DNA of 64,000 bases from a virus. Below, piece by piece: positions 4,152-52,568 of the stretch. A program made the translations under genes and the position numbers. How positions within the stretch are numbered: position 1 is the stretch's first letter; every line of letters starts with the position of its first letter. Location: positions 27,256 through 91,255 of IMG/VR virus record IMGVR_UViG_3300036790_000231, one strand, 5' to 3'. Below the pieces are notes generated by a model. It made no database searches. It had not been told where the DNA came from and saw only the letters and a program-made list of their open reading frames with translations.

Positions 4152-4937
4152 CTATCTCTTTCCAACAACTACTCTAATGTCTTCTTTTCTATCCTTAATT
4201 CCATATACAATAGGAAATCCAGTATCTCTAATCTTCTCCATTACTACCTCACCCATATTGCCAAACTTACCAACCTCAAGAGCAATCACTTGGACATATT
4301 TTCTTTTCTTAACTTCTGACAAAAGTCTGTTAATAAGTGCGTATCCATCATCTCCTCCCCACAAAGAAATATCAGGTTCATTATTCACCATCTCAGATGG
4401 ATATGAATCGATCTTTTCTTTTGGAAGATAAGGTAGATTAGCAGTTATTGCATAGTAAACATCCGAGGTATTTTCTAATAAATTGCTATGCTTAATATTA
4501 ATAGGCAAATGTAAATTTTCTGAATTTACATAGGCTAAATCCAAAGCATCCTTACTAATATCCGATACTGTTACCTCAATATCAGGACGCTCATGCTTTA
4601 CAGCCAACGCAACTGCTCCAGAACCCGTCCCTACATCCAACAACCTTACATTTGCTGGAATATCAAGAATAGGCTCTACAAGTAATTCAGTCTCTATACG
4701 AGGAACTAATACTCTGTTATCAATAGATAGATCAAGTCCTCTGAACTTGCTTTTACCAATTATATAAGCTACAGGTTCCCTTTCATTAATTCTTCTACTA
4801 ATATATGTATTAAGCTGGATATCATTTTCAGCTGATTCAAAAAGTTCTTCGGTTTCTTTCCTAGGATTTTCTCCTTCAAGATTTGTAATGGCTTCAACAG
4901 TAGAATCAAAAACAGAACTATCAACAACGGTATTCAA
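4152..4937 (-). CDS. prmC: release-factor glutamine N5-methyltransferase (PrmC/HemK family)
   Basis: RRINEREPVAYIIG, VLVPRIETELLVE, DVGTGSGAVALA, ANLPY, EP..SLWGGDDG and LEVG motifs. Confidence 0.9.
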   Translation of the reverse strand: MNTVVDSSVFDSTVEAITNLEGENPRKETEELFESAENDIQLNTYISRRINEREPVAYIIGKSKFRGLDLSIDNRVLVPRIETELLVEPILDIPANVRLLDVGTGSGAVALAVKHERPDIEVTVSDISKDALDLAYVNSENLHLPINIKHSNLLENTSDVYYAITANLPYLPKEKIDSYPSEMVNNEPDISLWGGDDGYALINRLLSEVKKRKYVQVIALEVGKFGNMGEVVMEKIRDTGFPIVYGIKDRKEDIRVVVGKR

Positions 4938-6184: not shown

Positions 6185-6268
6185 GGCAGCGTGCCCAAAC
6201 TGGTAAAGGGACCTCGTTTAAGCCGAGGCGGCTTCACGGCCTTGCGAGTTCGACTCTCGCCGCTGCTA
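6185..6268 (+). tRNA. tRNA-Leu(TAA)
   Basis: Acceptor GGCAGCG/CGCTGCT; anticodon arm CCTCG-TT TAA GC-CGAGG; long variable arm; T arm GCGAG-TTCGACT-CTCGC. Confidence 0.93.
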
Positions 6269-27037: not shown

Positions 27038-28018
27038 TTACCTATATACAACCTGATCAACAACTTCACCCATTGAATAGTCCGGATCTGAGACAACTGG
27101 GTCAGCAAATACCCTGAATGTTTGAGCAATAGTTTGTTGATTGCCAGACTTCATATACTCAAGGGTTGAAGCTTGAGGAGACTTCAGAACTCTACGCATA
27201 AGATGACCTCTTATTTTACCGGCAGAAGTTCCAACAGTTCTCTTATGAAGAATAGCCATTCTACGTTCTGTATAAGCAGAAGGATTTCCTAGTCCCAAAT
27301 GTCTCTCGTTAGGCGTCTGAGTTATATCAGTGGTGATTTCTCCACCTTCCCAAGCAAACTGAATATTTTCTAAGCTTGTTTGAGCAAGAGGAGCATCAAC
27401 TGTCATCTCCCATTCATCTGGAATAGCTAGAATAGCCGCCTGAATCTGATCAATATCGATCATACTCTCAGTGTTATTCCTGGTAAGTTTTATTCCGCCT
27501 TTAGTGGAACCAAGCTCAGTCCAAGAACCAACCGGATCATAAAGCCCAAAACCTGCTTGAACTCTTTTAATTTCTGATGTAGCTTCTTCAGCAGTTTTTT
27601 TCAGCGTATTTTGAGCAATAACGATCAATGGTTGAGCATGATTCTCCAGTTCTCCAGCAAATTTAACTGTAATTGCATTTTTATCTAATCCTTCTGTTCC
27701 TTCACATTCCACACCTTCTTCTCCGATAGAAGGAAGTTCTTCCAGAGCTTTTTGTATATCTTCAGAACTCAATTCATTATATTTAAGTTCTTTAGTTTCA
27801 TAAGACATAAAACCAAACGAAATGATACCAGTAGTAGGTTCTTTCGTTAATTTAGTAATTTCTTGTTCCTCATTAGTATAACCAGTAGTAGCAAGATTGA
27901 TTATACTTCCTAATTTCTTAGGATAAGGAGTAGAATAAGGGGCTACAAGAACACGAGCAGGGCCACGGATAATTCCGTCCCCCAGCGGTTCTACTCTCTC
28001 AAATCCACCCGTAGACAT
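27038..28018 (-). CDS. major tail tube protein with an inserted surface domain
   Basis: IIRGPARVLVAP...WTELGSTKGGIKLT...DQ tube fold, with a ~110-aa insertion. Confidence 0.82.
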   Translation of the reverse strand: MSTGGFERVEPLGDGIIRGPARVLVAPYSTPYPKKLGSIINLATTGYTNEEQEITKLTKEPTTGIISFGFMSYETKELKYNELSSEDIQKALEELPSIGEEGVECEGTEGLDKNAITVKFAGELENHAQPLIVIAQNTLKKTAEEATSEIKRVQAGFGLYDPVGSWTELGSTKGGIKLTRNNTESMIDIDQIQAAILAIPDEWEMTVDAPLAQTSLENIQFAWEGGEITTDITQTPNERHLGLGNPSAYTERRMAILHKRTVGTSAGKIRGHLMRRVLKSPQASTLEYMKSGNQQTIAQTFRVFADPVVSDPDYSMGEVVDQVVYR

Positions 28019-30623: not shown

Positions 30624-31880
30624 CTAAAACGCCTTACCGAGTAAGAAGCACTGCGGCCTACGTAATCTGGGAAACCTTGAGCATCCTTGTCTAAAGTAAG
30701 TAGTCTTTGACTCGTGATCAATAATTATCTCAGATTGAGGTCCAATCTCCTTACGTAGAGAATTCCATGTATCAGATATAACTACAGGGCCATCGGCAAC
30801 ATCTGCGATATTCTCACCCTCGAACACATAATTCGTAGTCATAAGAACCTCTCCATTTTGTAAATAAGTAGTCATAGCCGACTGACCACGATTATATCCA
30901 AGTTCAGTAGCAACTTCATTTGTTTCTTCTCTATAGCCAGAATCTGTAACGATCAGCTTAGGAGGTTCGGCAGCAACCCCACCCTGAGCATCTGATGGAG
31001 TCGAGCCCCACAGCAAGCTAAGAATGTCATCTACAGTCGGGAGAAAAGCATTCCTATCTGTATTGGTTAAATAACCTCTGGCTTGATTTGAGCGCTGCAA
31101 TTTTTCATATGTATAAGAATTCATATGAATACAAGATCCATAAACCCCTGTATCATTACCAATGATTTTCTGCCACGAACGAATATCGTCAATAGGAGTC
31201 GAATTTAACCTATCTGTCCATGGGACCGCAGCAGAAGGCTTATGAGTTTCTAAATAGTTATATTTTATTTCGTATGACTGACCGCCAGCATAATTTACAA
31301 CAAGAGGATTACCCTTGAATACCTGCCAGCGCATAACTTCAGTCAATCTCTCAAAGCGAAGCTGAAGAATTTTTCCAAGAGTGGCAAGATCTACACCGGC
31401 ACGTGCTCTAATTGCTCCAACATCAGAAGTTAATCTAATATAAAGATCCTCCGAAATAGGAGACATTTCATCAAGTAACAGAAGCTCTGTGACTTCCTCT
31501 GTATAATTGATCTTTGGATTATAAATTGCAGGAGTTGCATTTGGCGCTCTAAACTGGCCGATACCAAACGGAGCAACCTCGGCAATATCCCTGCGAATTA
31601 AGCGATCCATTACTGGTTTGAGCGGAGCAATATCTGCCCCAGGCGATGGAATTGTCTCCCAGGCAGTCAGAAGAGCGCGTCTAACGATATCCGTAAGAGC
31701 GGCCTGCGGATAAAGATCAAAAACATTCAAGCCTACATCGCCAACACCAGGACTGGAGATTTCAGAACCTACACCGGCATCTCCTCCAGCAATAGGCATA
31801 TAAACATTAGCGAACCACTCTTCGATTCTCCTACTATCATCTATTCTCTTATTTTCCTTTGTCATTTTGGCTTTTGCCAT
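30624..31880 (-). CDS. major capsid protein (HK97 fold, lambda gpE-like)
   Basis: RLTEVMRWQVF.G, W...NSTPIDDI..W and MN...Y..L motifs, C-terminal FPRL..P; follows the protease and decoration genes. Confidence 0.85.
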   Translation of the reverse strand: MAKAKMTKENKRIDDSRRIEEWFANVYMPIAGGDAGVGSEISSPGVGDVGLNVFDLYPQAALTDIVRRALLTAWETIPSPGADIAPLKPVMDRLIRRDIAEVAPFGIGQFRAPNATPAIYNPKINYTEEVTELLLLDEMSPISEDLYIRLTSDVGAIRARAGVDLATLGKILQLRFERLTEVMRWQVFKGNPLVVNYAGGQSYEIKYNYLETHKPSAAVPWTDRLNSTPIDDIRSWQKIIGNDTGVYGSCIHMNSYTYEKLQRSNQARGYLTNTDRNAFLPTVDDILSLLWGSTPSDAQGGVAAEPPKLIVTDSGYREETNEVATELGYNRGQSAMTTYLQNGEVLMTTNYVFEGENIADVADGPVVISDTWNSLRKEIGPQSEIIIDHESKTTYFRQGCSRFPRLRRPQCFLLGKAF

Positions 31881-38646: not shown

Positions 38647-39400
38647 GTGTTCATTATCTCGTTTGCTATTGCTACTTCTCCCGTTATAGTTGGCCAATAT
38701 GAAGGAGCACCTATTATATTATTTTTGCATTCAAGAAATTTTCTTTTCTTTAAAATCTTACAAACGATATATGCTACTCCTGCATCTCCATTTGCTATTT
38801 TCGCTATACAGGGATAATATGGAGCCCACGCTCCCTCTGGATCATTAATAGACAGTCTATAATACTCTTTTAATATATCTTTTTCTAATTTATTCATATT
38901 TATTATTTTCATTCTTAATTAGACTGTGAATATCTTTTTTCCTTGTACTATTTTCAGATCTGTATTTTTCTCCTCAAAATCACAAAGAACCCTGAAATTG
39001 CCAGAAGTACCACCATCTACTGTAATTATAATCCCAGACCATAGTTCCTCACCATCTTCAAAATCTAATCTATCTAAATCAAAAGAAGAAACTCCAATTC
39101 CATTAGCTGGCGGATGAGTTGGATTCTCACGATTATGAGATGCTACTCCTATCCCGAATGCCTGAAGATTTTTGCCTATAGCTGTCATAATTCTTCTAGA
39201 GCTATTTTCAATTCATCTACTTCCATATTCCGAAATCTAATACTTTTCTTTCTTAGTCCCTTTCTCATTTCTAATCTACTACCGCAGTTGTAAGTAACAG
39301 GAGGATTACAAAATAAATCATCTGTCATAGTAATCCTTACATATACTGATATTCTATATCCTCTTTTTAACAACCACTTATATCTAAGTAATTTAATCAT
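38643..39400 (-). other. three small hypothetical CDS (38643-38912, 38919-39188, 39185-39400)
   Basis: Closely packed or coupled ORFs downstream of the LysRS-like gene. Confidence 0.55.
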
Positions 39401-40638
39401 CTCATCGTCGGGAAAGCTGTAACCTCACGAATAGATTTGCTTTTAGTAAGAAGCATTACTAATCTATCTATACCGATCCCAACTCCAGCAGTTGGAAGCA
39501 TCCCATATTCAAGTGATTCAATATATGATTTATCATATGGATTAGCTTCTTCAAAGATTTCGTCTTTATTATTCTCATCAACTACTCGATTAGATGTGCC
39601 TTCATTCCATCTCTTTGCTTGTTCAAGAGGATCATTCAAATCATTAGCGCCACTAGCTATCTCTACTCCATCAATATATAACTCCCATGCTTCTGAAATA
39701 TCAGGATTGTCCTTACTCTTTCTAGAAAGTGGCCAATCGTCAGAAGATAAACTTCCTACAAAATTTAAATCTGGTATTTTGTCTGAATCATTGCAACTAT
39801 AAAAAACATGTTCAATAAGCTGTTGTGTAAAAACCTTCATTTCACGATGATCAACACAAGTAGCAAAGAACTCAACCATAGAAAACTCCGGGCTATGGTT
39901 AATAGATATGCCCTCATTTCTAAATACCTTACCTATATGAAAAACCTTATCAAACCCTCCAACTAAATATCTCTTTAGATATAGCTCAGATGAAATTCTA
40001 AGATAAAAATTCTCACTTAATGCATTGTGATGAGTAACAAATGGTCTAGCAGTAGCTCCTCCATAAACAGGTTGAAGAATTGGTGTTTCAACCTCCAAAT
40101 AACCTGATAATTCAAGGAAATTTCTGATTGATTTTATTATATTTGATCTAAGTATAAATAAATCTCTAGTTTGTTTATTAATCGCCATCTCTACCTCTCT
40201 ATGGCGAAATCTAAAATCATCATTCATAATAATATTCGGTAAATCTCTAACTACCTTAGAAAGTATTGTAATTTCAATAGCTTCTATAAATTCATGTTCA
40301 TCTTTAGGATGATTTTTCTTATATCCTTCTATTCCAATCATATCTCCCGTAGCGAGACTATTACATATAAATCCTATATTTTCTTCCTTACAGTGTATCT
40401 CAATAGATCCTGTTGAATCTGCTATATCTATAAAAGTTATTTTGCCATGATATCTAATTGATGTAACCCGTCCAGCTATTGCAATTAGTTCAGGTATTGA
40501 TGAAGTATAAAACTTTACAGTTCTAATTGTTATTCTATTTCTAAAATTTGCCGGGTAGGGATCAATTCCGGCATTCATTAATTCATCAATCTTCTTAATC
40601 CGACGTTCTCTCATTTGTTCTTCAGATACACCGCTCAC
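39397..40638 (-). CDS. lysS: divergent class II lysyl-tRNA synthetase-like protein
   Basis: GIDPYP, OB fold AGRV..R.HGK..F, motif 1 LEVETPIL, GGATARPFVTHHNAL, motif 2 FRNEG..H.PEF and motif 3 GVGIGIDRLVM. Confidence 0.88.
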   Translation of the reverse strand: MSGVSEEQMRERRIKKIDELMNAGIDPYPANFRNRITIRTVKFYTSSIPELIAIAGRVTSIRYHGKITFIDIADSTGSIEIHCKEENIGFICNSLATGDMIGIEGYKKNHPKDEHEFIEAIEITILSKVVRDLPNIIMNDDFRFRHREVEMAINKQTRDLFILRSNIIKSIRNFLELSGYLEVETPILQPVYGGATARPFVTHHNALSENFYLRISSELYLKRYLVGGFDKVFHIGKVFRNEGISINHSPEFSMVEFFATCVDHREMKVFTQQLIEHVFYSCNDSDKIPDLNFVGSLSSDDWPLSRKSKDNPDISEAWELYIDGVEIASGANDLNDPLEQAKRWNEGTSNRVVDENNKDEIFEEANPYDKSYIESLEYGMLPTAGVGIGIDRLVMLLTKSKSIREVTAFPTMR

Positions 40639-40646
40639 ATAAACTC

Positions 40647-40892
40647 CTATTCGTAATATTCGGGAACAAAGGCTCGACCATTGTGGTCAATACCTAATTC
40701 CTCTCTCGCTACAGAAATCACTACCGCCTGGGCCGTTGTCGCGGCGTTGAGCCGTTTACGGGCTTTAGCGATCGTGTTCTCGACCGTCTTATGGCTCACT
40801 TTGCATTCAACTGCTATCTGCGCATATTGCATCCCATTGGCCGTCAGCGCCAAGAAGAGTTTTTGTCGCGCCGTGAGTCCTTTTGCTTCCAT
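40647..40892 (-). CDS. LuxR-type HTH protein
   Basis: LTARQ..LALTANG..YAQIA...VSHKTV...IA.AR.RL.A.TTAQAV. Confidence 0.88.
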   Translation of the reverse strand: MEAKGLTARQKLFLALTANGMQYAQIAVECKVSHKTVENTIAKARKRLNAATTAQAVVISVAREELGIDHNGRAFVPEYYE

Positions 40893-41980: not shown

Positions 41981-42304
41981 TCAAAATTGTCTCCCATGCT
42001 TATAGGGTCTATTTCTATTCTTTTCCATCTTAGCCATTACAGCTTTATCCATATCGAATTTTCTCTCTGCGGCATAATCTAGAAGCCTAATCAATACGTC
42101 AGTAGCCTCTTCTTCCTCATGCGCATGATCGCCGTCACGAAGGGCATCAAGCATCTCAGAAATCTCTGAATGTATTAATGCCAACTTCTCAGGATATATA
42201 GATGGATTTAAAAACTCATCTTTGTTATAGCCTGTTCTTCTATGATCCCAAAATCCATGATCCTTTGATATTTCATAGCATTCTCGTGCTAATTCATTTA
42301 ACAT
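41981..42304 (-). CDS. MazG-like nucleotide pyrophosphohydrolase
   Basis: HGFW..EKLALIHSEISE...EEEATDVLIRLLD...KMEKNRNRPYKHG. Confidence 0.88.
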   Translation of the reverse strand: MLNELARECYEISKDHGFWDHRRTGYNKDEFLNPSIYPEKLALIHSEISEMLDALRDGDHAHEEEEATDVLIRLLDYAAERKFDMDKAVMAKMEKNRNRPYKHGRQF

Positions 42305-52490: not shown

Positions 52491-52568
52491 GCTCGCCTAA
52501 CCCCTCTGCTTTACAGGCAGTAGAAAGGGTAATTGGATTGCATCTAGGTTCGAGTCCTAGGGCGAGCA
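52491..52568 (+). ncRNA. atypical tRNA-like RNA (Val-TAC-like hairpin, rearranged lower half)
   Basis: Perfect acceptor GCTCGCC/GGCGAGC+A and T arm CTAGG-TTCGAGT-CCTAG, but non-canonical D and anticodon regions. Confidence 0.7.

Follow-up and report, generated by a model that had tools for sequence, protein, structure and literature searches.

The closest described relatives of the protein considered here are the bacterial lysyl-tRNA synthetases (LysRS) LysS and LysU (TIGR00499, NF001756; PDB 1e1o, 3e9h, 9slz). They are built from an N-terminal helix, an OB-fold anticodon-binding domain and a class II core, in that order. The LysRS residues that bind the lysine side chain are among the most conserved of the synthetase family. 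The subject of this study is a viral homologue with the same layout in which none of these four side-chain ligands is retained. It is encoded in a stretch of 64,000 nucleotides, called the window throughout, that covers positions 27,256 to 91,255 of the IMG/VR virus record IMGVR_UViG_3300036790_000231. The gene is an open frame of 413 codons with a GTG start at window 39397..40638 on the minus strand (coordinates checked), and its product, P0001, is referred to as the window protein. Residue and fold comparisons confirm a class IIb LysRS homologue whose adenylation core is intact. The enzyme is very probably active: nothing has changed in its adenylation and alpha-amino sites, the OB domain keeps its core, and the phage lineage has held on to the gene. 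There is about an even chance that it still charges host tRNA-Lys with lysine, held in a different way.

Other descendants of LysRS have been described. EpmA (also PoxA or GenX), the beta-lysine ligase of EF-P, is a LysRS-derived class II core turned to a new use; it lacks the OB domain and has a canonical Y/N/F/E pocket. Paralogues of class II LysRS are frequent, resistant synthetase paralogues are a known theme, and natural toxins directed at LysRS exist (PMC5388404). Horizontally acquired resistant synthetases resemble the present case in being second copies with active-site changes and a history of horizontal transfer. However, such paralogues change one or two residues, whereas here the whole side-chain pocket is changed, and the subfamily has no known link to an inhibitor, a producer cluster or a resistance phenotype.

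Catalytic core and side-chain pocket

Several comparisons place the window protein among the LysRS enzymes. In Pfam, it matches the class II D/K/N core (tRNA-synt_2, E 3e-69) and the OB anticodon domain (PF01336, E 8.8e-11, aa 53-116), and the LysRS models rank first in NCBIfam. The ESM Atlas model has a predicted local distance difference test score (pLDDT) of 0.85 and a template modelling (TM) score of 0.93 to LysRS models, and the top Foldseek matches are LysRS. The AlphaFold model is also LysRS-like, with a moderate pLDDT of 73. The closest solved structures are all LysRS; the alignment to them splits and leaves approximately 55 target residues unmatched. LysS and LysU are the best fold match, with a local identity of approximately 33-40%.

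Related families fit the protein poorly. LysX, a fusion of MprF and LysRS (NF002821), gives a score of 329 against a cut-off of 742, and the 413 residues include no lysyl-phosphatidylglycerol synthase or other extra domain. Archaeal and eukaryotic-type AspRS share the class IIb fold, and the strand motif E-I-x-S-G-A of the window protein resembles what we take to be an AspRS motif. However, the best score with AspRS or AsnRS models is 142, far under the cut-off of 374, and the pocket-bottom position where AspRS has its substrate-binding Arg holds an Asp and no basic residue.

Residues were checked by alignment to Salmonella LysS, EpmA and 79, later approximately 230, canonical LysRS. A preliminary description of the locus had stated that motifs 1-3 and the metal-binding Glu residues are kept, and the alignment bears this out. 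Motif 2 (FRNEG, aa 239-243, window 39910-39924) and motif 3 (GIGIDRL, aa 387-393, window 39460..39480, with the ATP-binding R392) align with their canonical counterparts and are invariant; these and all features below lie on the minus strand unless stated otherwise. The adenine-stacking Phe and both Mg-binding Glu are also present. The equivalents of LysU G216, E240, R262, E278, E414, E421 and R480, which serve the alpha-amino group, ATP and Mg, are conserved in the window protein and in its clade. Among them are all three alpha-amino ligands (G216, E240 and E278). The first part of the core (window 39808..40200) holds motif 1, the GG loop (QPVYGGATARPF), the alpha-amino ligand E218, motif 2 and the motif VEFF.

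In contrast, all four ligands of the lysine side chain are changed: Y280F, N424S, F426A and E428D in LysU numbering. The first change lies in VEFF (window 39865-39876), which stands in place of M/L-E-L-Y; E256 is kept and Tyr has become F258. The other three lie in EIASGANDLND (window 39631..39663), in place of EI(A/G)N(A/G)F(S/T)ELND. Here the Mg-binding E326 is kept, Asn is replaced by S329, Phe by A331 and Glu by D333. The preliminary description had read both motifs correctly. Two further changes, absent from the preliminary description, occur in every relative. S398W gives DWPLSRK (window 39718..39738) instead of the canonical xSPLA(K/R), with a clade-invariant W302. R413A/F414W gives AWEL (window 39679..39690) instead of RFE, beside the kept Mg-binding E319.

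A change of Glu to Asp pulls the carboxylate back by one methylene, and the loss of the Tyr hydroxyl, together with Asn to Ser and Phe to Ala, frees room at the bottom of the pocket. A consistent shift to smaller residues, and with it an enlarged pocket, had been proposed for this protein. This account is incomplete: although four residues become smaller, two positions close to them have acquired Trp, and the pocket may or may not be larger.

The second structural change is the loss of an insertion. LysS residues from approximately 301 to 388, some 88 residues that lie between motifs 2 and 3, correspond to a scar of 15 residues in the window protein (window 39763..39807), so the earlier view of a shortened, 413-aa homologue without this insertion is upheld. 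The subfamily signature consists of F281, W398, A413-W414, S425, A427 and D429 (Salmonella LysS numbering) together with the deletion of the insertion, and the window protein has all of it. Loss of the insertion alone is not decisive, because a 438-aa LysRS in a metagenome-assembled genome of a WWE3 bacterium (L102:3465-4778, plus strand) has a shortened insertion and a fully canonical pocket.

A fully intact adenylation core would also suit a role outside translation, such as synthesis of diadenosine tetraphosphate (Ap4A) or related Ap4N as in LysU, or aminoacylation of a protein as in EpmA. Ap4A is a known side product of LysRS enzymes, and a MazG-like nucleoside triphosphate pyrophosphohydrolase is encoded 1.3 kb upstream. 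However, Ap4A synthesis does not require a rebuilt side-chain pocket, and the OB domain and its core residues are conserved throughout the clade though such roles have no need of them. Protein modification in the manner of EpmA, one of the earlier suggestions, is unlikely: the window protein is more than a catalytic core, with the OB domain present, its pocket is not the canonical one of EpmA, and the EpmA model TIGR00462 scores it at 162.2 against a cut-off of 286.9. A non-translational role is considered quite improbable.

Distribution and cellular counterparts

The short form is rare, since just two full-length representatives and two fragments occur among 1.84 billion representatives at 50% identity. 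A database of 5.8 billion clusters contains 29 short homologues (403-446 aa) and two of 465 and 477 aa. The two longer ones, P0007 and P0015, carry Cys-rich CxxC inserts within the OB anticodon domain that are possibly zinc-ribbon-like, and part of the insertion domain survives in P0007. All 33 sequences that bear the signature have an identical set of six residues, F/W/W/S/A/D, which is absent from the approximately 230 canonical LysRS and from EpmA. In the phylogeny, 31 of the 33 form one clade with a stem of 0.62 substitutions per site and a Shimodaira-Hasegawa-like approximate likelihood ratio support (SH-aLRT) of 100. The window protein lies inside this clade, which splits into subclade A (six proteins, including that of the window) and subclade B (25 proteins).

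Constraint was judged from the invariance of alignment columns. The ratio of nonsynonymous to synonymous changes is unsuited here, as the DNA pairs share approximately 43% protein identity and are saturated. The 29 sequences compared, which share 42-69% identity with the window protein, have 90 invariant columns, and these include all catalytic and all derived residues. The pocket change is, to judge from this conservation, not decay, because the derived residues remain invariant across a deep clade (identity to approximately 42%). The homologues thus share the substitutions, and the scattered decay that the preliminary description had named as grounds for refuting it is not seen.

The same evidence bears on the idea that a captured lysS is decaying here or has become an inactive relic. 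A relic would fit scores under the curated cut-offs, the large internal deletion and the degenerate linker of the window copy. On the other hand, the frame is open and preceded by a Shine-Dalgarno sequence, the invariant columns include every catalytic residue, and the derived residues never vary. The gene is also retained in four of four related phage genomes, and the predicted fold is confidently LysRS-like. A relic is therefore very improbable.

When 185,579 species genomes were scanned with the clade motifs, only canonical-pocket LysRS were found among the 14 best matches checked, the best being the 438-aa WWE3 enzyme. Literature searches found no paper describing a phage LysRS subfamily of this kind. 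Within the reach of these searches, the phage short form with the derived pocket is an undescribed subfamily.

A related pocket is found in cellular proteins. P0122, of 516 aa, combines the insertion and a canonical OB domain with the pocket F/W/W/S/C/D. Ten proteins from Solirubrobacterales (P0270-P0279, 498-546 aa, on contigs of up to 276 kb; for instance MDX6669776.1) have F, W, G/S, F, D, S, S and D at the pocket positions, and their 106 nearest neighbours are canonical. These paralogues share with the phage proteins Phe for Tyr, Trp for Ser, Ser for Asn, Asp for Glu and a small residue for Phe, and they too lack the Arg that precedes the Mg-binding acid. Unlike the phage proteins, they are GC-rich cellular genes for longer proteins with their own insertion domain and a canonical OB loop, and they mostly have Phe-Asp at positions 414/415 where the phage proteins have Trp-Glu.

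When the pocket columns are masked, P0122 and the ten paralogues form a clade (support 100) nested beside canonical Solirubrobacterales LysRS, with the phage clade apart. The approximately unbiased test does not reject the grouping of all derived-pocket proteins in one clade (p-AU 0.37, masked), and P0122 with the phage clade as one clade gives a p-AU of 0.92 (unmasked). One origin and convergence of the pocket are thus both compatible with the trees. Whatever its origin, a similar alternative pocket is, on these alignments, maintained in both cells and phages. The GC content of the window (38%) and of the related phage G002 (40-47% in L006:1-20000) is a poor fit to GC-rich Solirubrobacterales as present-day hosts. 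Given this difference, the link from the phages to the bacterial paralogues may lie far back or reflect convergence.

A pocket of this kind raises the question of cargo, and a new amino-acid substrate, as suggested in the preliminary description, is possible. In this model, a different cationic L-amino acid would be charged onto a tRNA-Lys-type acceptor. Candidates include arginine, homoarginine, lysine modified by N-epsilon-methylation or otherwise, or a different long diamino acid. A cationic side chain would still be expected, as the acidic alpha-amino ligands and the acidic pocket bottom are kept. The consequence would be a partial reinterpretation of Lys codons, or an aminoacyl-tRNA for non-ribosomal use or a tRNA-dependent pathway. 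Four of four side-chain ligands have changed and were then frozen clade-wide. Full replacement of invariant ligands, together with the retraction from Glu to Asp, is expected for a longer or bulkier cation, and cages for guanidinium or methyl-ammonium groups are often made of Phe, Trp and Asp. After masking of the pocket columns, a bacterial paralogue clade with its own support shows this solution too, which suggests selection for one alternative pocket.

Other observations speak against a new cargo. Two Trp are gained, so that the pocket need not be larger, and convergence is not established, since a single pocket origin is not rejected. No amino-acid-modifying or biosynthetic gene is conserved beside the gene in four phage genomes, nor does any conserved neighbour there point to a special amino acid. 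Finally, a cargo other than lysine would cause mistranslation of Lys codons in cells, given the canonical anticodon domain of the bacterial paralogues. A new specificity is put forward as the main rival of the lysine reading, with a probability clearly below even.

Anticodon domain and tRNA partners

Recognition of the anticodon by LysRS has been described in a cryo-electron microscopy study of the human enzyme. It reports that F144 stacks on U35 and U36, and that R136, Q155 and E195 bond to both bases (PMC11878792). T191 and K193 in the loop between strands 4 and 5 contact the modified wobble base, and H215, H217 and F218 in the linker read the modified A37 (PMC11878792).

In the window protein, the OB-fold domain spans aa 50-127 (window 40258..40491), and its strand 4-5 loop is divergent. 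R57, F69 and E114 are kept and correspond to human R136, F144 and E195, readers of U35 and U36. The equivalent of Q155 is E80, within GSIEI (window 40396..40410), which stands in place of the canonical GRIQL. GSIEI had been reported before as a change of the anticodon reader. It is indeed present, but this substitution of Gln by Glu at the U35-reading position (Q96E) occurs in five proteins only, all of them in subclade A, which has six. The KFHGL loop had likewise been reported lost, which is true of the window protein and of no other clade member: the linker from the OB domain to the catalytic core, canonically LPDK(F/x)HGL, is here a degenerate LPNIIMNDDF (window 40213..40242). The wobble-side loop is altered throughout the phage clade (F to G, T to N).

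Subclade B and the bacterial paralogues keep the equivalents of the R, F, Q and E readers, and subclade B also keeps the A37-binding linker. Since the four readers are kept there, the pattern points to a tRNA with an xUU anticodon, that is tRNA-Lys, as the probable acceptor of the clade. A non-Lys tRNA, another of the earlier proposals, is thus not indicated for most of the clade. In its tRNA-side features, the window protein is by these comparisons the most divergent member.

This divergence could mean that the tRNA acceptor has shifted or relaxed in the subclade of the window protein. The new partner would be the phage tRNA-Arg(UCU) or a tRNA-like RNA at window 52491-52568 (plus strand). Q96E is restricted to subclade A, the window protein has lost its A37-binding linker and its strand 4-5 loop runs free, and in subclade A the OB domain has outpaced the core in divergence (40% identity against 72%). 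The tRNA-Arg(UCU) has A73 and the loop CU-UCU-AA, which equals the anticodon loop of tRNA-Lys except for C35, and it occurs in all four related phages. In the tRNA-like element, a 7-bp acceptor stem and a T arm are combined with a discriminator A. However, the use of AGA and TTA codons simply explains the presence of tRNA-Arg(UCU) and tRNA-Leu(UAA), and subclade B phages with the same tRNA-Arg retain Gln. A Glu could still accept the N3-H of U35, and R57, F69 and E114 remain in place. The Rfam tRNA model, moreover, does not match the tRNA-like element even at E up to 1. An altered acceptor is hence regarded as unlikely. As for the element itself, its middle is rearranged and its fold has an energy of -31.9 kcal/mol (z -2.0).

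The phage belongs to an uncultured soil siphovirus-like lineage of approximately 91-94 kb. Its IMG/VR record has 91,255 bp, is 98% complete and encodes a 2580-aa tape-measure protein, a Dit protein and major head genes. Four of four related phage records carry the LysRS-like gene (three of them at least 98% complete, one 65%), and the capsid is 68-72% identical in two related genomes compared. The major head protein (window 30624-31880) has no tblastn match in 50,697 deposited phage records, and so offers no clue to the host, but three IMG/VR contigs encode versions with 68-72% identity. The gene was seen in one sequencing run, a soil metagenome that is possibly the source sample, and no RNA dataset was listed.

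Five tRNAs are encoded by the phage, namely Leu-UAA, Gln-UUG, Thr-UGU, Met-CAU and Arg-UCU (window positions 6185, 41753, 52628, 52861 and 53719). The absence of a tRNA-Lys from the window, already recorded in the preliminary description, extends to the whole 91,255-bp genome and to three related phage genomes, which also carry tRNA-Arg(UCU) and tRNA-Leu(UAA). The LysRS-like gene is the sole Lys-related translation gene of the phage genome. The favoured A-ending codons include AAA (4.3%), the most frequent of them, AGA (2.6%), TTA (2.6%) and CAA (2.3%), and the phage tRNAs fit AGA, TTA, CAA and ACA.

Two candidate partners were rejected. The tRNA-Gln(UUG), 1.1 kb upstream of the gene, has an ordinary Gln identity (U1-A72, G73) and is absent from three related phage genomes. 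Stop-codon recoding with a suppressor partner finds no place either: with code 11, open reading frames of at least 100 aa cover 81.5%, the long frames are not notably longer with any stop read through, and no suppressor tRNA was found in the genome.

The gene is preceded by the Shine-Dalgarno sequence AGGAG (window 40644..40648), 5 nt before the GTG start. Because AGGAG overlaps the TAG stop of the upstream gene, the two genes are probably translationally coupled. The upstream gene (window 40647-40892, minus strand) encodes an 81-aa protein resembling LuxR/GerE or sigma-70 region 4. The flanks otherwise hold small unknown open reading frames and FtsK-like, helix-turn-helix and MazG-like genes; the last is the pyrophosphohydrolase mentioned above (window 41981-42304, minus strand). 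Further away, among replication genes, lies a methyltransferase with an MTS small-domain signature, PrmC/HemK-like (window 4152-4937, minus strand).

Proposed activity and its meaning

The preferred reading, an active synthetase with lysine as cargo, can be set out as a series of steps. ATP-Mg would be bound by the unchanged residues of motifs 2 and 3 and the two Glu. The alpha-amino group of an L-amino acid would be held by the unchanged Gly loop and two Glu, and an aminoacyl-adenylate would form. The amino acid would then be passed to a tRNA docked through the OB domain. The cargo is most likely L-lysine; the shorter Asp and an aromatic box would hold its epsilon-ammonium group in place of the Glu/Tyr(/Arg) network. 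The acceptor is most likely the host tRNA-Lys with its xUU anticodon. An AAA-rich phage with its own tRNAs for other A-ending codons and none for Lys would probably benefit from additional Lys-tRNA. We infer the activity, the lysine cargo, the tRNA-Lys acceptor and the benefit to the phage from comparisons of sequences and predicted structures.

Lysine is favoured as the cargo for three reasons. First, cells keep a similar pocket beside a canonical anticodon domain in the Solirubrobacterales paralogues, and a cell could hardly sustain the charging of tRNA-Lys with a wrong amino acid. Second, a phage rich in AAA and without a tRNA-Lys would have a clear use for more charging capacity. Third, one of the substitutions is tolerated elsewhere: the review PMC12546413, citing Ataide 2007, describes E. 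coli LysRS Y280F as functional and as resisting, or better excluding, thialysine.

Several points weigh against this reading. The window protein misses the curated LysRS cut-offs, with 402.1 against 468 for NF001756 and 364.9 against 427.6 for TIGR00499. Glu428 is invariant, and Tyr280 nearly so, in the approximately 230 canonical LysRS. Exchanging all four side-chain ligands together with two neighbouring residues is more than drift or resistance usually brings about. Finally, recognition of tRNA-Lys seems least secure in the window protein, because its reader Gln is a Glu, its A37 linker is lost and the OB domain of subclade A evolves fast.

One lineage has thus swapped all the LysRS side-chain ligands, frozen the new set and lost the insertion. 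It is found in soil phages, with a related form in soil actinobacteria. If the new specificity, held here as the less probable case, were true, this viral gene would be a rare case of a synthetase that changed its specificity in nature, which would bear on phage control of translation and on the engineering of orthogonal pairs. The enzyme might then be a ready-made compact scaffold for genetic-code expansion, and the phage might deliberately alter the reading of Lys codons or feed a tRNA-dependent pathway. If lysine is still loaded, the enzyme would show that lysine can be recognised by a second kind of structure and that a LysRS can be as small as 400 residues, and it may differ from that of the host in its sensitivity to lysine analogues or LysRS inhibitors.

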